Sequence record: NC_055781.1
Source of the DNA: Escherichia phage p000v
Direction: 5' to 3' (one strand)
Length of the DNA stretch: 64,000 nt
In this document: piece after piece, positions 6,659 through 24,044 of the stretch
Layout: every line of letters begins with the position of its first letter
Numbering within the stretch: the stretch's first letter is position 1
Notes under the pieces: generated by a model
The model's database searches: none
The model's input: only the letters and a program-made list of their open reading frames with translations
Told to the model about the DNA's origin: nothing
Made by a program: the position numbers and the translations under genes

Positions 6659-7309
6659 ATGTATACTGTATATAAAATAACTAACATCGTAAATAATAAA
6701 ATTTATATAGGTGTTCATAAAACTAATAACCCGGATGATTCTTATAAAGGAACAGGTAAAATTATCTTAAAAGCCCATGCTAAATACGGATTAGATAATT
6801 TTGTAAAAGAAGTATTATATGTGTATGATACCGGTGACGAATTACTAAATGAAGAAATGGCTTTCCAAAAGGAAGCAGAATTAGTTGATCAATCTTTTGT
6901 GGATAGAGAAGATACATATAATATAGACCTAGGAGGAAAGGGAGGACGAGGCCGTTCTATTGATGTGCGAAAAAGAATAGGCGATTCATCCAGAGGTAGA
7001 AAATTAGGTCCTATTTCCGAAGAATCTAAAAAGAAAATGAGTTTAGCTAAGAAGGGTAAGAAATTATCCGAAGAGCATAAAGCTAAAATAGGTAAAGCAG
7101 GCCGAGGCAGGATAATGCCTAAAGAGATTAGAGACAAAATAAAAAATACTCTTACGGGACGAAATAGAACTCCTGAAGAAAAGGAAAACATGAGATTAGG
7201 ATACTTAAATACTCCTAATAAGATATGCCAATACTGCGGTATAGAATGTAAACCTGCGCCTTATAAACGTTGGCATGGTGATAATTGTAAAATGAGGAAA
7301 GTTGAATGA
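6659..7309 (+). CDS. GIY-YIG homing endonuclease (Seg-like)
   Basis: N-terminal [23 protein letters not shown] motif; basic C-terminal DNA-binding region; inserted between genes 4 and 2 with ATGA overlap onto gene 2. Confidence 0.85.
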
Positions 7310-8127
7310 GCATATTCCAAATTATATCTGAAGGCGTACAAGCCCCTAAGATTGCTCAGTCTATTAACGAAAGAAAATGGATTAAGGTGGGATTAGAGTA
7401 CAAGAAAGCTAAAGAGAAAGGAATCACTGCAAAAGCATTTGCAGAATCAAAAGGAATAAAATACTCGACGTTTAAGTCTGCAATGTCTAAATATGCATCG
7501 GCTATTAAAACTGAACAGAAAATTGAAACACTTGAATCTAAACCTAAAAATAAACTCAATAAGCAAGAACGTCAACTTCTGATGATAAACTCGTTTCGCA
7601 GTTCAATACGAGAAAAGATTAGAAATGAAGGCGCAGCAGTAAACAACAAATCATCTAAGTGGTTTGTTGAAACAATTAAGAAAAGTGTAAAAGGTCATAA
7701 AGTAGTCAAGCCTACGCCAGGCAAAATTTATACTTACGTGTATGATGCTAAACATAAAGATACTCTGCCATACTGGGACAGATATCCTTTGATTATTTAT
7801 TTAGGATTAGGTAAACATAATTTGTTGTATGGGTTAAACTTGCACTATATCCCACCTAAAGCACGACAACAGTTTCTTGAAGAATTGCTGAAGCAATATG
7901 CTAGCACAACTACTATTACTAATAACACAAAGTTGAAGATAGACTGGAGCAAGGTGAAAGGATTTCAAGGTGCTGACAAAATGATTAAAGCATACCTGCC
8001 AGGCCACATTAGAGGAACAATAACAGAAATCGCTCCTAAAGACTGGGCTAACATAATCATGTTACCTACTCAGCAGTTTATGTCAAAAGGAAAACGTTTC
8101 TCTGCGAATACTGTTTGGAAATCTTAA
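7306..8127 (+). CDS. 2: DNA end protector protein gp2
   Basis: 273 aa; size and position (between 4 and 3) as in T4; basic protein. Confidence 0.75.
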
Positions 8128-8867: not shown

Positions 8868-9602
8868 ATGGAGCTAATCTTTTTAAGTGGCATCAAACGT
8901 AGTGGTAAAGACACTACTGCTGATTACATCAATTCAAACTTTAAATCCGTAAAATACCAATTAGCATATCCAATTAAAGACGCTCTAGCAATAGCCTGGG
9001 GACGTAGGCATGCTGAAAATCCTGATGTATTCACAGAGTTGAAATACGAATACTTTGAAGGCATTGGATACGACCGTGAAACACCATTAAATCTCAATAA
9101 GTTGGATGTTATTGAATTATTGGAAGAAGCGCTAATTTATTTGCAAAGTCAATATTTACCAATTAATAATGTTAAAGTATTATCATCGTTAGAAGGTGGA
9201 TATTCATATCTAGATATTAAACCATATGAAGCCCTGCGTGAAGCTATAAATAATATCAACGACACATGGTCAATCCGCCGTCTTATGCAAGCCCTCGGTA
9301 CGGATGTTGTCGTTAATTTATTTGACCGTATGTATTGGGTTAAGCTTTTTGCATTAAACTATATGGATTATATTGGAAGTGATTTCGATTACTATGTCGT
9401 AACCGATACACGCCAAGTCCATGAAATGGAAACCGCTAGAGCGATGGGTGCCACAGTTATTCATGTGGTTCGCTCTGGTACGGAATCCACCGATAAACAT
9501 ATTACAGAAGCTGGGTTGCCTATTGAAGAAGGTGATTTAGTTATTACAAACGACGGCTCTTTAGAAGAGCTTTATTCTAAAATTGAAACAATCTTAAGGT
9601 AA
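8868..9602 (+). CDS. 1: deoxynucleoside monophosphate kinase gp1
   Basis: 244 aa; MELIFLSGIKRSGKDTTADY P-loop and extended similarity to T4 gp1. Confidence 0.93.
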   Translation: MELIFLSGIKRSGKDTTADYINSNFKSVKYQLAYPIKDALAIAWGRRHAENPDVFTELKYEYFEGIGYDRETPLNLNKLDVIELLEEALIYLQSQYLPINNVKVLSSLEGGYSYLDIKPYEALREAINNINDTWSIRRLMQALGTDVVVNLFDRMYWVKLFALNYMDYIGSDFDYYVVTDTRQVHEMETARAMGATVIHVVRSGTESTDKHITEAGLPIEEGDLVITNDGSLEELYSKIETILR

Positions 9603-9606
9603 TAAA

Positions 9607-10292
<686 letters not shown>

Positions 10293-10304
10293 TTTCACAA
10301 AACA

Positions 10305-10340
10305 GTTTACATAAGGATGATGGTGTGTTACTATCATCCT
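10305..10340 (+). promoter_or_regulatory. early-type promoter (GTTTAC -35, TACTAT -10) with 8-bp inverted repeat AGGATGAT/ATCATCCT
   Basis: Sigma70-like spacing; inverted repeat brackets the -10; upstream of CTS protein gene. Confidence 0.6.
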
Positions 10341-10368
10341 ATCAAATAAACAACCTCAAGGAAATAAA

Positions 10369-10680
10369 ATGAAAACGTATCAAGAGTTTATCGCAGAAGC
10401 TACTAAAGCCGATAAAAATTTTATTATTAACACCACCGGTCCGTTAGATGATGAATACGCTAATGCTATTATTAAGTCAATTTCTAATCAAGGCGTTGAA
10501 GTAACAAATTTCGAATATAAGAAAAATGATACTTATATGGTAATTAGTATCAAAAAAGGTTCAAAGGCTAAAATTAAATCTGCATTTGGTGTTATGCGAG
10601 TCGACCAAATCGATAACCACGATTTTTCACAAACAGGGGTCAAACGCCAGAATACTATTTCATCTAAAGGCATAAAATAG
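10369..10680 (+). CDS. internal protein with capsid targeting sequence (IPI-locus protein)
   Basis: Starts MKTYQEFIAEA, the T4 internal-protein capsid-targeting leader; located next to 57B where T4 has ipI. Confidence 0.8.
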   Translation: MKTYQEFIAEATKADKNFIINTTGPLDDEYANAIIKSISNQGVEVTNFEYKKNDTYMVISIKKGSKAKIKSAFGVMRVDQIDNHDFSQTGVKRQNTISSKGIK

Positions 10681-10718
10681 TTTACATGCTGATAGGACTA
10701 TGTTATAGTAGTCCTATC
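10680..10718 (+). promoter_or_regulatory. early-type promoter with 10-bp inverted repeat GATAGGACTA/TAGTCCTATC around -10 (PeSL-like cassette)
   Basis: GTTTAC, 18-bp spacer, TATAGT; perfect inverted repeat flanks the -10. Confidence 0.6.
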
Positions 10719-10746
10719 AAAACAAATGAGTAAATGGAGAAATAAA

Positions 10747-10932
10747 ATGAAACGCGCTGAACTGATTCGTAATGTTGCTGTAGTAATTGCTTCAATGGCT
10801 TTTAGTTTTTCGATGTTTGTAGGATTCATTTGTGGACTACTGACAACAACTGAAAATTCTATCTCATTGGTAGTAGCATTTCTAATCGGCTTAATCGCTA
10901 TCGTTATGGATAAAATTGCAAAAGGTGAGTAA
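10747..10932 (+). CDS. small membrane protein
   Basis: Start set at second ATG (GGAGA SD); two hydrophobic helices. Confidence 0.55.
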   Translation: MKRAELIRNVAVVIASMAFSFSMFVGFICGLLTTTENSISLVVAFLIGLIAIVMDKIAKGE

Positions 10933-12181: not shown

Positions 12182-12253
12182 GGCCCTGTAGCTCAATGGG
12201 AGAGCTGTCAGCTCATAACTGATAGGTAGCTGGATCGAAACCAGCCAGGGCCA
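12182..12253 (+). tRNA. tRNA with CAU anticodon (elongator Met or Ile2-type); CCA not encoded
   Basis: Hand-folded cloverleaf: acceptor GGCCCTG/CAGGGCC, D-stem GCTC/GAGC, anticodon stem GTCAG/CTGAT with loop CTCATAA, T-stem GCTGG/CCAGC; 1-72 pair is G-C so not an initiator. Confidence 0.8.
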
Positions 12254-12294: not shown

Positions 12295-12963
12295 ATGTTC
12301 CATTACACTTATAAAATAACAAATAAAATTAATAATAAAATCTATATAGGCGCTCATTCTACCGAAAATTTAGATGATGGATATATGGGTTCTGGTAAAT
12401 TATTAAAAAGAGCCCAAGACAAGTATGGTATAGAAAATTTTAATAAAGAAATTTTAGAATTCTTTGACACTAAAGAGCAGATGTTTGAAGCCGAGAAAAA
12501 TATCGTAAACGAAGAATTTTTGAATCGTTCTGACGTATATAATTTAAAACTTGGTGGCGAAGGTGGTTGGGACCATTTAAATACTTACGAATTTAATTAT
12601 AAAAAGAAAGAAGCCTCTATTAAAGGAGCCAAAGCTTTTAAAGAGAGATTTGATTCTGATGAAGTGCTTCAAGAAAAATATCGTAAAATGGGTTCAGAGA
12701 AATTAAAGCATCTGTGGACTTTACCTGAATACAGAGAAAAATTCTCTAGCACTAAGTCGTTTTTAAATAAAAATCATACTTCCGAAACTATTGCTAAAAT
12801 GAAAGATACCCACGCCAGGAACAAACACCAACAAGGCGAGAAAAATTCCCAGTTTGGTACTATGTGGATTCATTCATTAGAAGAAAAGAAATCTAAGAAA
12901 ATTAAGAAAACCGATCCTATTCCGGAAGGTTGGATTAAAGGCTATAAACTAAAATTTAAGTGA
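12295..12963 (+). CDS. GIY-YIG homing endonuclease (SegB-like, tRNA region)
   Basis: YKITNKINNKIYIGAHS...GSGKL GIY-YIG motif; adjacent to tRNA as T4 segB. Confidence 0.85.
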   Translation: MFHYTYKITNKINNKIYIGAHSTENLDDGYMGSGKLLKRAQDKYGIENFNKEILEFFDTKEQMFEAEKNIVNEEFLNRSDVYNLKLGGEGGWDHLNTYEFNYKKKEASIKGAKAFKERFDSDEVLQEKYRKMGSEKLKHLWTLPEYREKFSSTKSFLNKNHTSETIAKMKDTHARNKHQQGEKNSQFGTMWIHSLEEKKSKKIKKTDPIPEGWIKGYKLKFK

Positions 12964-13648: not shown

Positions 13649-13656
13649 TATAAATA
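13649..13656 (+). promoter_or_regulatory. T4-type late promoter TATAAATA
   Basis: Exact TATAAATA 36 nt upstream of CTS protein gene at 13692. Confidence 0.6.
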
Positions 13657-13691: not shown

Positions 13692-14318
13692 ATGTATACT
13701 TTTAATGAATTTTTAGCCGAAACGGAAGTAATCACCGAAGCCGGTGTACGTATGACAAAAGAGAAATGGCAAGCTGCTTACGATGCTATTTCTGGTACAA
13801 AAACTAGTACAGAGTTTTTCAAAAACGTTCAAGCCATGTACGGTATCGACACTTCCAGCCAAAAAGAATATTACAGAGCTTCTAAAGCATTCAAAGATAT
13901 TGTTAGTGGTGGTGTTTCTGCTAAATCTGGTTCGCCTAAAGTAAAACCTGCTCCTACCATTCCTAAACCTGCGACCCCTAAAGCAATAGCAAAACCTGAG
14001 CCTAAGCCTGAAGTAAAAGCAACTCCTAAAGCTCCTGCTCTTAAGTTTGATACTTCTAGCCTGGAAAAAAAATATAGACAACTATCTTCGCTTGTTCGTG
14101 ATATTGAATCCGATACATCTTCACTCGTTCGTGAATTCAATAGTCTTCGTAATGGCCAACATATCAACAACCTTGATACCCCAGACCTTTATCGTCTTTA
14201 TTTGACTATCGAAGGTTTGAAGTATACTCAACCACTTCATGATGAGATTAAAGAAAAACTTCGACAAGCAGGTCGTTTGGCTGCTGACGCTGCTCAGTAT
14301 GCAAAAACTCGTAAGTAA
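13692..14318 (+). CDS. capsid-targeted protein (CTS-like leader MYTFNEFLAE) with Pro/Lys-rich linker
   Basis: N-terminus resembles internal-protein leader; PKxKPAPTIPKPATPK repeat region; late promoter upstream. Confidence 0.7.
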   Translation: MYTFNEFLAETEVITEAGVRMTKEKWQAAYDAISGTKTSTEFFKNVQAMYGIDTSSQKEYYRASKAFKDIVSGGVSAKSGSPKVKPAPTIPKPATPKAIAKPEPKPEVKATPKAPALKFDTSSLEKKYRQLSSLVRDIESDTSSLVREFNSLRNGQHINNLDTPDLYRLYLTIEGLKYTQPLHDEIKEKLRQAGRLAADAAQYAKTRK

Positions 14319-21555: not shown

Positions 21556-22044
21556 ATGAATATATTTGAAATGCTTCGTAATGACGAAGGTCTTAGACTG
21601 ACTTTATACAAAGACACCGAAGGCTTTTGGACGATTGGCATAGGCCATTTGGTAACAAAGAACCCGTCTTTAGCCGTAGCTAAAGCTGAACTTGACAGAA
21701 TGATCGGTCGTAAATGCAACGGCACAATTACCCTTGATGAGGCTGAAAAGCTATTTAATGAAGACGTTGATAAAGCCGTTCGTGGAATCTTGGGTAATGC
21801 TAAACTTAAACCAGTGTATGATTCTTTAGACGCGGTTCGTCGATGTGCATTAGTCAATATGGTCTTCCAAATGGGTGTAGCAGGCGTCGCAGGTTTTACT
21901 AATTCTCTTCGTATGCTTCAACAGAAACGTTGGGATGAAGCGGCAGTAAATCTAGCCCAATCTAAATGGTATCGTCAGACACCTAATCGCGCGAAACGCG
22001 TAATCTCAACATTTAAAACAGGAACTTGGAAAGCGTATATATGA
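21556..22044 (+). CDS. e: endolysin (T4 lysozyme E)
   Basis: [32 protein letters not shown]...; near-colinear with T4 lysozyme; start ATG 21556 with GGGAGG SD. Confidence 0.95.
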
Positions 22045-22322
22045 AAACATATAGTGAATTTTTATCAGAATCTATTCTTAACGAAGCTACCGACACATTT
22101 GCAACTAAGCTAGGTGCAGCTTTGGTTGAAGCGGAAAGTCTATTAGCACGTATTTCTGAACTTGCCAGTAAGATAGATACTCGCAAATTTGAACGTACCA
22201 GTGATATCGTTAAGCTTGAAGCCTTGTTGCGTATGTGCGATAAACCGGAAGAAATCGCTAAGAACGGCTCGTTAATGAAACAACGTCTTGAAAAATATAT
22301 TTCAGGCGCTTCAGAAAAATAG
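22041..22322 (+). CDS. capsid-targeted internal protein (CTS leader [10 protein letters not shown])
   Basis: ATG overlaps e stop (ATGA); N-terminal leader matches internal-protein CTS. Confidence 0.7.
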
Positions 22323-22323
22323 T

Positions 22324-22377
22324 GTTTACTTCCTCCAAGGACTTTGATACTATACATTCATCAACTACTTGGAGGAA
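22324..22377 (+). promoter_or_regulatory. early-type promoter embedded in RBS-sequestering hairpin upstream of denV
   Basis: GTTTAC then 10-bp TTCCTCCAAG pairing with CTTGGAGGAA (the denV SD); TACTAT -10 lies in the loop. Confidence 0.6.
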
Positions 22378-22380
22378 ATT

Positions 22381-22794
22381 ATGACTCGTATCAATTTAAC
22401 ACTTGTTTCTGAACTGACCGACCAACATCTTATGGCTGAGTATCGTGAATTACCACGCGTATTTGGTGCAGTCCGTAAACATGTTCAAAATGGTAAACGT
22501 GTAAAGGATTTTAAAATCTCTCCAACATTTATCTTAGGCACAGGTCACGTAACATTCTTTTACGACAAACTTGAATTTTTACGTTTACGTCAAATCGAGC
22601 TAATCGTGGAATGTTTAAAACGCGGTTTCAAAATCAAGGACACGACAGTCCAGGATATTTCCGACATTCCTGTAGAATTTCGTAATAATTATGTCCCGTC
22701 CGAAGCGTCCATTGCGATAAGTCAAGCACGCTTAGATGAAAAAATTGCTCAACGTCCGACTTGGTACAAATACTATGGTAAATCAATTTACTAA
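22381..22794 (+). CDS. denV: endonuclease V (pyrimidine dimer DNA glycosylase)
   Basis: [34 protein letters not shown]...; near-colinear with T4 endonuclease V. Confidence 0.95.
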
Positions 22795-22806
22795 GGAAAA
22801 ACGAAA

Positions 22807-23061
22807 ATGTATCAAGAATTTACCGCTGAAGCAGATGCCAAAGGCCCAAAGTTTAAAGTTAAAGCTTTCATTGGTGATGCGGAAGACTTTGGCTCATTAA
22901 AATGTAATGGGTATTCTTTCTTAGGTGGCGATGGTAAAGAAATCAACACCTATGCAAAACGTAGTGAAATTGCTTATGTTGTAGCAAGTCCTAAAGTAGA
23001 TGTTGACGATATTGAATACGATTTTAACAACTTCGGAATTATTTCTGGCGGTAAAGCTTAA
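22807..23061 (+). CDS. capsid-targeted internal protein (CTS variant MYQEFTAEA)
   Basis: 84 aa; leader related to MKTYQEFIAE. Confidence 0.65.
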   Translation: MYQEFTAEADAKGPKFKVKAFIGDAEDFGSLKCNGYSFLGGDGKEINTYAKRSEIAYVVASPKVDVDDIEYDFNNFGIISGGKA

Positions 23062-23065
23062 AATT

Positions 23066-23095
23066 GTTTACGCTTAAGTATTAATATGGTATAAT
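23066..23095 (+). promoter_or_regulatory. early-type promoter (GTTTAC / TATAAT)
   Basis: 18-bp spacer; followed by CTATCAAAAC motif common to cassettes. Confidence 0.6.
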
Positions 23096-23125
23096 TACTC
23101 TATCAAAACAAACAAGGAAACAAAA

Positions 23126-23440
23126 ATGAAAACGTATAAAGAATTTATTGCAGAATCCGCCAACCAACGCGTTGAAGGTGGTTATATTTGGATTGAACAA
23201 GTTGAGCCACCGAGCCGCACTTCTACAGGTAAATGGAAAATTACCGTTGATGGTCCTGGTGGTAAACGTAGGACTCTTAAAGAAATTAACGGGTACTATG
23301 AAGAAGCTCTTTCGGATGCAGGAACTTACATGATGCAAATCATGATTAAAAACCCTGAAAACCGTTTTGCAGCTAAAGTCTTCCGCCGCATCGGTAATAA
23401 ACTTTATGATGCATACTCTAAAAACTTCCCTAAAGAATAA
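23126..23440 (+). CDS. internal protein (IPII-position, CTS leader MKTYKEFIAE)
   Basis: 104 aa basic protein with canonical CTS; position after denV as T4 ipII. Confidence 0.8.
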   Translation: MKTYKEFIAESANQRVEGGYIWIEQVEPPSRTSTGKWKITVDGPGGKRRTLKEINGYYEEALSDAGTYMMQIMIKNPENRFAAKVFRRIGNKLYDAYSKNFPKE

Positions 23441-23465
23441 CATAAATTAAAACAATAGGAACAAA

Positions 23466-24044
23466 ATGAAAACTTATAAAGAATTTATCGCCGAGGCCTT
23501 TGCAGGAAAAGCTCAAGGCATTAATAAGGACGAGTGGAATTATCGTGGCGGAAACGGCTTTGACCCTAAAACTGCTCCACTTGAACGATATCTAGCCACA
23601 AAAGCTTCTGATTTTAAAGCATTCGCTTGGGAAGGACTTCGCTGGCGTAACGATCTAAATATTGAAGTTGACGGACTCAAATTTGCTCATATTGAAGATG
23701 TTGTTGCTAGTAACTTAGATGCAGCTTTTGTTAAAGCCGACAGCGACCTTCGTCGCTGGAATTTAAAACTGTTCTCTAAACAAAAAGGCCCGAAGTTTGT
23801 GCCTAAAGCAGGTAAATGGGTTATTGATAATAAATTGGCTAAAGCTGTCAACTACGCTGGGCTTGAATTTGCCAAGCATAAATCATCATGGAAAGGTCTT
23901 GATGCAATGACTTTCCGTAAAGAATTTGCCGATGTTATGGCTAAAGGCGGCTTTAAGGCAGAAATAGATACCTCTAAAGGTACGTTTAAAGACGCTAATG
24001 TTCAGTACGCTTACGCCGTTGCTAATGCAGCCCGTGGTAATTAA
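23466..24044 (+). CDS. internal protein (IPIII-position, CTS leader MKTYKEFIAEA)
   Basis: 192 aa with canonical CTS; size and position as T4 ipIII. Confidence 0.8.
   Translation: MKTYKEFIAEAFAGKAQGINKDEWNYRGGNGFDPKTAPLERYLATKASDFKAFAWEGLRWRNDLNIEVDGLKFAHIEDVVASNLDAAFVKADSDLRRWNLKLFSKQKGPKFVPKAGKWVIDNKLAKAVNYAGLEFAKHKSSWKGLDAMTFRKEFADVMAKGGFKAEIDTSKGTFKDANVQYAYAVANAARGN

Follow-up and report, generated by a model that had tools for sequence, protein, structure and literature searches.

The 64,000-nucleotide stretch of the genome of Escherichia phage p000v (NC_055781.1) analyzed here, referred to below as the window, contains at positions 10369-10680 (+ strand) an ORF that is, as judged from sequence comparisons, a full-length member of Ip7, an already named and annotated family of internal proteins (IPs) of the T4-like phages. 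We consider it probable (about 80%) that this ORF is the Ip7 orthologue of an RB69-like phage and specifies an internal head protein that would be packaged, processed and injected, and that likely blocks a host defence. At the protein level the ORF holds no novelty, its predicted product being identical to proteins that have already been deposited; the sole local novelty of the region is the apparent loss of an adjacent IPI or Ip9 cassette. The family is of interest since internal proteins are the first molecules of the phage in the cell, and recent work has established each of Ip1, Ip2 and Ip3 as a specific anti-restriction factor. Ip7 is among the most widespread of the remaining internal proteins without a known target, and is thus a reasonable candidate for anti-defence screening.

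The ip7 gene and its genomic setting

The ORF starts with ATG, opens with the sequence MKTYQEFIAEATKADKNF (as read from the window) and encodes 103 amino acids beginning with MKTYQEFIAEA, in agreement with the initial annotation of this DNA. The same annotation had placed the ORF in the position of T4 ipI, and it does lie between homologues of 57B and tRNA.4, which is the slot of ipI in T4. The homologues of gp1, gp57A, 57B, tRNA.4, tRNA.3 and tRNA.2 that surround ip7 are all encoded on its strand (Table 1), and the DNA of the region is 92-96.5% identical to that of the RB69-like Mosigvirus phages AV118, JM10, pEB20, mogra and RB69. Chance does not account for this reading frame: the DNA motif that encodes the leader is present in 5 copies in the window (0.05 expected), homologues conserved along the entire protein occur in 281 phage records, all of them from T4-like phages, and the pairwise dN/dS values of ip7 (0.05-0.15) indicate purifying selection. 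An anti-defence gene of known type, 57B/Acb1, directly adjoins the IP cassette slot.

Table 1. Coordinates of the ip7 region and of the second IP locus in the p000v window
Feature	Positions	Strand	Remarks
gp1 dNMP kinase	8868-9602	+	PF21448
gp57A	9607-9837	+	PF17594
57B homologue	9837-10292	+	PF23474, E 1.3e-58; Pfam name now anti-CBASS protein Acb1
Upstream promoter-like site	10306-10334	+	sigma-70/T4-early type; TTTACA-17 nt-TACTAT, TG before -10
Upstream cassette hairpin	10314-10340	+	arms 10314-10324 and 10330-10340, 91% complementary
Shine-Dalgarno AAGGA	10358-10362	+	6 nt 5' of ATG, read directly; within a repeated GAAATAAAATGAAA unit that also precedes tRNA.4
Capsid targeting sequence/propeptide MKTYQEFIAE	10369-10398	+	codons 1-10; ends in prohead-protease motif I-A-E
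Predicted mature Ip7* and stop codon	10399-10680	+	93 aa, 10.3 kDa, pI 9.5
Downstream promoter-like site	10681-10709	+	TTTACA-17 nt-TATAGT, TG-extended; starts directly after ip7 stop
Downstream cassette inverted repeat	10690-10719	+	perfect, 11 bp, 100% complementary; 12-bp stem in RNA fold
tRNA.4 homologue	10747-10932	+	followed by tRNA.3 and tRNA.2 homologues
Ip5-like ORF	22041-22322	+	48% identity to RB32 Ip5; phrog_3499
denV-like pyrimidine-dimer glycosylase	22369-22794		amid the IP ORFs of the second locus
104-aa leader-bearing ORF	23126-23440	+	phrog_3966 'unknown function'
IPIII orthologue	23466-24044	+	91% identity to T4 IPIII

Membership in the Ip7 family

The predicted protein resembles the Ip7 proteins of the T-even phages in its leader, in its length (102-103 amino acids in the family) and in its cassette context next to 57B and tRNA.4, and it differs from them in no substantive way, except that in p000v the ORF is alone in its slot. 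Within Mosigvirus the identity is 98-100%: the proteins of AV118 (WPK36192) and pEB20 are identical to it, the 'internal head protein 7' of mogra is 99% identical, and ORF156c of RB69, annotated as 'internal head protein', is 98% identical. The Ip7 alleles of Tequatrovirus and Karamvirus are 64-72% identical to the p000v protein, the same range that is found over the full length for the Ip7 or internal head proteins of RB32, CC31, T2 (66%), Moon, WG01 and KM16, and the homologues in JS98, VR7, KPV15 and Marfa exhibit full-length identities of 41-50%. The family member of JS98, KPV15 and Marfa is instead encoded in the vicinity of denV, ipIII and e, which is the other of the two IP loci.

The name Ip7 derives from phages K3 and RB15. 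It is used in the annotations of RB32 (ORF139c), CC31 (CC31p146), VR7, WG01 and MX01, and the RB32 record describes its protein as 'similar to RB15 and K3 Ip7, RB69ORF156c, flanked by 43 bp direct repeat, along with Ip9'. The p000v protein matches phrog_2667, 'internal head protein' (E 1.9e-38), and a structural search of BFVD matched it to Ip7 of phage MX01 (E 1.8e-14). Searches of Pfam returned sub-threshold noise only (GDH_2nd, Fn3-III_PB4), and there were zero matches in NCBIfam, in PADLOC or among PDB sequences. Roughly ten IPs, Ip7 among them, are credited to Repoila et al. 1994 by a study of 2025 (PMC12373910).

The phages that encode Ip7 span at least six genera (Mosigvirus, Tequatrovirus, Karamvirus, Dhakavirus, Jiaodavirus and Marfavirus). 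When 1.84 billion representatives were searched exhaustively with the family profile, there were 6 matches, which consisted of two full-length clusters at 50% identity and a few fragments or marginal matches; the family is confined to T4-like phages. One of the 6, a 1442-amino-acid ankyrin/NACHT-type protein (P0036), was judged to be a spurious repeat match. Another, a protein of 84 amino acids (P0037) encoded at 3646-3900 of L017 (metagenomic contig SRR29243428_59212), aligns weakly (E 4.6e-4) to the core domain of the Ip7 profile, has a CTS-like leader, MLTFKEALQE/A (slashes mark possible cleavage points), and lacks the C-terminal tail; the contig is T4-like and has a uvsX-like gene close to that of P0037. 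By its sequence, P0037 may be a distant, tail-less relative of Ip7 outside the enterobacterial phages.

The capsid targeting leader

The leader of the p000v protein is of the type found in IPII and IPIII of T4. BLASTP finds residues 1-11 to be 100% identical to the leaders of both of these proteins, whereas the leader of T4 IPI, MKTFKEFTSTTTPVSTITE/A, is longer and different, with 19 residues ending in ITE as compared to 10 residues ending in IAE. The canonical leader described in the initial annotation is thus present, with the refinement that its affinities lie with IPII and IPIII and not with IPI. For targeting to the capsid, including that of foreign proteins, the N-terminal 10 residues of IPIII are sufficient; within this capsid targeting sequence (CTS), residues 4 and 7 are important for targeting and residues 8 and 10 for processing, and the protease gp21 cuts after L/I-X-E (PMC9026906). 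All of the corresponding targeting and processing residues (Y4, F7, I8 and E10) are present in the p000v leader, and I8-A9-E10/A11 is the sole [LI]xE site in the protein. Leader and cleavage pattern are invariant among 23 aligned members of the Ip7 family: E10 is found in every one, and A11 in 22, the remaining member having S at this position.

Taken with its location at an IP locus and its small and basic predicted mature portion, the CTS and the L/I-X-E motif followed by a small residue give the ORF product the features of a T4-type internal head protein. The identity of the first 11 residues and the basic nature of the mature proteins suggest that Ip7 would follow the same route of packaging, processing and injection as IPII and IPIII of T4, although BLASTP alignment to these two proteins stops at the leader, the mature parts being unrelated, and although their genes are at the e/denV locus, where p000v likewise has an IPIII orthologue. 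With T4 IPI, Ip7 shares its locus, the promoter/hairpin/Shine-Dalgarno cassette, a related leader and small size, and Ip7, like IPI, would undergo packaging, gp21 cleavage and injection.

A much less attractive alternative is that Ip7 is an early cytoplasmic protein that is not packaged and that acquired its IP-like N-terminus through cassette recombination. The sole recognisable promoter directly upstream of ip7 is of the sigma-70/early type and the late promoter TATAAATA is not nearby, with no copy within 1.1 kb 5' of the gene and the nearest at 9245, as would suit an early protein. The promoter layout is, however, the same for T4 ipI, the gene of a packaged protein, which is likewise without TATAAATA directly upstream. 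The leader is moreover identical to a sequence that has been found by experiment to suffice for the packaging of foreign proteins, and its invariance, together with that of the cleavage site, across 23 diverged members whose DNA differs indicates selection on the peptide itself. We consider an unpackaged Ip7 to be very improbable.

Distinction of Ip7 from IPI and other internal proteins

The initial annotation had recognized no similarity between the mature part of the protein and T4 IPI and had proposed that it was an internal protein distinct from IPI. The first of these statements is borne out by BLASTP, which aligns the two proteins over residues 1-12 only (E 0.023), and the high identity over the mature region that would mark the ORF product as an IPI was looked for and not found. 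The second is supported in those parts that sequence can address, which are the leader, the single protease site, the slot and the mature part. IPI of T4, with its mature form IPI* (PF11634), is known to be injected and to inhibit GmrSD, the type IV restriction enzyme of CT596, and the slot of the p000v ORF, which is that of T4 ipI, might by itself suggest a diverged IPI orthologue that inhibits GmrSD of the CT596 type. This reading is refuted by the restriction of the BLASTP alignment to the leader and by several further observations. The p000v protein does not match PF11634 (IPI_T4), whereas the positive control, a genuine IPI from another assembly (L013:1874-2161) whose gene adjoins that of an identical Ip7, matches this profile with E 5.7e-50. 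In RB69 and other relatives a gene for a true IPI is the neighbour of ip7, the second gene of RB69 being the IPI orthologue. Finally, the mature sequences of Ip7 and IPI are without detectable homology and the predicted folds differ, with a beta-alpha-beta-beta-alpha-beta arrangement for Ip7 as compared to the two sheets flanked by terminal helices of IPI*. Homology of the mature part to IPII, IPIII, Ip9 or Ip5, as well as to IPI, was also rejected, as BLASTP and hhalign aligned the leader alone; an identity of 34-36% to Ip9 in MAFFT alignments was without support from profile comparison.

The predicted mature protein contains 15 K+R and 10 D+E residues. An AlphaFold2 model built on an alignment of 23 sequences (mean pLDDT 74.5) places residues ~14-82 in the core, in blocks with pLDDT 83-92, and leaves residues 84-103 as a tail of low confidence that appears disordered and basic and yet carries a conserved R-x-N-T motif. 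The core would be a generic ferredoxin-like fold, which offers no clue to function. Invariant positions in the Ip7 alignments are K16, F18, I20, L26, D27, I34, V45, K52, K63, G64, S65, K68, G74, V75 and N95, and the most conserved candidates for surface residues are K16, D27, K52, K63-G64-S65, K68, R93 and N95.

Evolution of the locus and the apparent loss of a second IP gene

The initial annotation had described the ipI locus as hypervariable among T-even phages. This holds for the content of the cassettes; the ip7 gene itself is conserved and not hypervariable. Between p000v and either RB32 or CC31, Ip7 is 67-70% identical with dN/dS of 0.12-0.15, a divergence similar to that of the essential protein gp1 (64% identity to RB32, 55% to CC31), and Ip7 is more conserved than tRNA.3. 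On the other hand, ip7 of the Mosigvirus type is found in only ~25 of ~215 related records, and its partner differs from phage to phage, such that the same Ip7 protein can be encoded beside Ip9 or beside IPI. The ip7 genes of RB69, AV118, mogra, pEB20 and RB32 are all accompanied by genes for IPI, Ip9 and/or Ip5.

The variation appears to be organized around repeated cassettes. A unit composed of GTTTACA, a hairpin, TAnnnT, a Shine-Dalgarno sequence and ATGAAAAC precedes ipI in T4 and also ip5, ip9 and ip7 in RB32, and the two cassettes that flank ip7 in p000v are listed in Table 1. The upstream hairpin has a predicted RNA folding energy of -15.4 kcal/mol (z -4.5, with 0 of 200 shuffled sequences as stable) and the downstream one of -17.7 kcal/mol (z -5.2). 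A terminator scan calls neither of them, and terminator function is not evident because the T-run that would follow such hairpins is missing. The downstream promoter-like site is the predicted promoter for tRNA.4. These arrangements resemble the PeSL (promoter-early stem-loop) cassettes of T4-like phages (Arbiol et al. 2010, PMC2839356; Comeau et al. 2014, PMC4122927), in which repeats of a strong sigma-70-like promoter and a stable hairpin flank small accessory genes, and the likeness extends to the gene-sized indel described below, which is bounded exactly by two cassette copies. They differ from PeSLs in that the hairpin occupies the spacer that separates -35 from -10 and extends into the -10 element, and the published examples come from RB49/phi1, PST/T4 and nt-1/KVP40 and not from RB69-like phages (PMC2839356, PMC4122927).

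In the close relatives of p000v a second IP gene lies between ip7 and tRNA.4, specifying IPI in RB69 and in one E. coli-associated assembly and Ip9 in AV118, mogra and pEB20. The p000v window is without one at this position, and tblastn detected no mature IPI or Ip9 sequence anywhere in its 64 kb. The stretch that is missing measures 330 bp by comparison to AV118 (ip9) and 356 bp by comparison to RB69 (ipI), with the break between cassette copies and the recombination junction in the downstream cassette (10681-10719 region). When the phage collection was queried with the junction, all 26 records that covered it aligned in two pieces spanning 604-645 bp, as compared to 291 bp in p000v, and no other record among 50,697 (INPHARED, GenBank phage records) has ip7 directly abutting tRNA.4. 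Deletion of the second IP gene by recombination between the cassettes is the most economical reading of these sequences. The apparent loss may alternatively be an artefact in which the two cassette copies were collapsed during assembly; three short public contigs end ~40 nt past ip7, evidence that the repeat troubles assemblers. If the deletion is real, p000v illustrates how an IP cassette can be lost in nature from the ipI locus, and this phage would be predicted, unlike RB69, to be without IPI-type protection against CT596-like GmrSD enzymes.

Possible functions of Ip7

If the biology of T4 is a guide, the leader of the Ip7 precursor would bind to the scaffolding core of the prohead, and the gp21 prohead protease would then cleave after Glu10 and release a basic, lysine-rich protein of 93 amino acids. 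The mature Ip7, probably in hundreds of copies, would be retained in the head along with the DNA and be injected with it. By analogy to Ip1-3, the protein would most likely bind and block in the cell one specific 'first-response' defence protein that attacks modified phage DNA. Recombination between repeated cassettes is, in our interpretation, the process by which the IP locus evolves and by which p000v probably lost the neighbouring IPI or Ip9 gene. The expectation of a specific inhibitor is based on the findings that Ip1, Ip2 and Ip3, each of which inhibits a different GmrSD enzyme, have only the leader in common (PMC12373910), and that IPIII without its CTS is active from the cytoplasm (PMC9391042).

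The nature of the defence that Ip7 might block is a separate matter. IPII (Ip2) and IPIII (Ip3) of T4 inhibit GmrSD-ECOR21 and GmrSD-ECOR17, respectively, whereas no GmrSD target is known for Ip7. Our search of the literature for the function, virion proteomics or injection of Ip7 yielded only Supplementary Fig. 9 of PMC12373910, where ip4-10 were examined against additional GmrSD variants and an apparent interaction of ip7 with CLS_011 'could not be reproduced'; the ip7 allele in that screen, which used T-even phages with glucosyl-hmC DNA, is unspecified and is not known to be the p000v allele. The assay against GmrSD-type restriction that had been proposed for this ORF has therefore been carried out in part, for ip7, and gave no reproducible effect. 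Phage T2 is restricted by GmrSD-ECOR17 and GmrSD-ECOR21 (PMC12373910) and yet encodes an Ip7 homologue, which we count against a GmrSD target. From the analogy to Ip1-3 one might propose, tentatively and at less than even odds, that Ip7, once injected, inhibits a host defence other than the GmrSD variants examined to date, perhaps another nuclease that senses modified DNA or a different first-response system. As Ip7 occurs in at least six genera, such a target would be expected to be widespread in the Enterobacteriaceae, if the defence reading is true. In that event p000v, whose 64-kb window contains ip7 alone in its slot and neither IPI nor Ip9, would lend itself well to a search for the target.

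The main alternative is that Ip7 is packaged and injected without any specific host target and serves as a counter-ion or packing aid for the DNA or as an accessory in the assembly of the scaffold core. The basic and lysine-rich composition of the mature protein would suit such a role, as would the observations that in T4 heads the phosphates of the DNA are contacted by internal-protein lysines only (PMC3012670) and that head assembly is slowed and burst size reduced in IPIII mutants (PMC9026906). The purifying selection on ip7, with a divergence like that of gp1, would likewise fit a housekeeping-like function, and the failure to find a GmrSD target is consistent with it as well. A generic counter-ion, however, would need neither a conserved folded domain nor a conserved motif in the tail, and the patchy, cassette-like spread of ip7, which is absent from many close relatives, is not what one would expect of a gene for head assembly or DNA packing. 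Furthermore, all three of the T4 internal proteins were long suspected of just such a role and proved to be specific nuclease inhibitors (PMC12373910). We therefore regard this alternative as unlikely, and favour the interpretation of Ip7 as an injected internal protein that acts on a host defence.

Other IP-like and possibly mobile genes in the window

The window contains further ORFs with IP-like leaders. One of these (13692-14318, + strand) encodes 208 amino acids (pI 9.5) with a variant CTS-like leader, MYTFNEFLAE/TEVITE/A, that offers two possible gp21 sites, and a proline/lysine-rich middle region; it matches phrog_2280 (unknown function, E 6.6e-58), and a late-promoter motif, TATAAATA, is found at 13649-13656, 36 nt 5' of its start codon. 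From these sequence features, the ORF may specify a further packaged protein that has no IP annotation.

A second IP locus, at 22041-24044 (+ strand), contains four leader-bearing ORFs. Three are listed in Table 1, as is the denV-like gene in their midst. In the fourth (22801-23061, + strand) the DNA reads ACG AAA ATG TAT CAA GAA TTT, with ACG in place of the usual ATG, and a start two codons later (22807-23061) would give a shortened leader, MYQEFTAEA, with T instead of I or L at position 8 and with no [LI]xE site; the family of this ORF is conserved in 216 phage records. A match to phrog_2667 (E 7.6e-17) had suggested that the ORF was a second Ip7 paralogue, but the match is driven by the leader, and hhalign comparison to the Ip7 profile aligned 12 leader-proximal columns only, with a probability of 29%, so that paralogy was rejected. 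The phrog_2667 cluster is heterogeneous and held together by the leader.

Two other ORFs are possible mobile elements. A tRNA-Met gene (12182-12253, + strand) is followed by an ORF for a GIY-YIG, seg-like homing endonuclease (12295-12963; PF01541, E 1.3e-6), and in RB69, AV118 and mogra a tRNA-Arg gene occupies the place of this ORF. ARAGORN detected no tRNA other than the tRNA-Met between 11000 and 24500, and insertion of this homing-endonuclease ORF may have displaced or disrupted the tRNA-Arg gene. The second, a 216-amino-acid ORF at 6659-7309 (+ strand), lies just 5' of an ORF at 7306-8127 and is absent from the stretch of RB69 that was examined; with a weak, sub-threshold match to the GIY-YIG protein SegE and a borderline match to NUMOD3, it is probably another mobile homing endonuclease.
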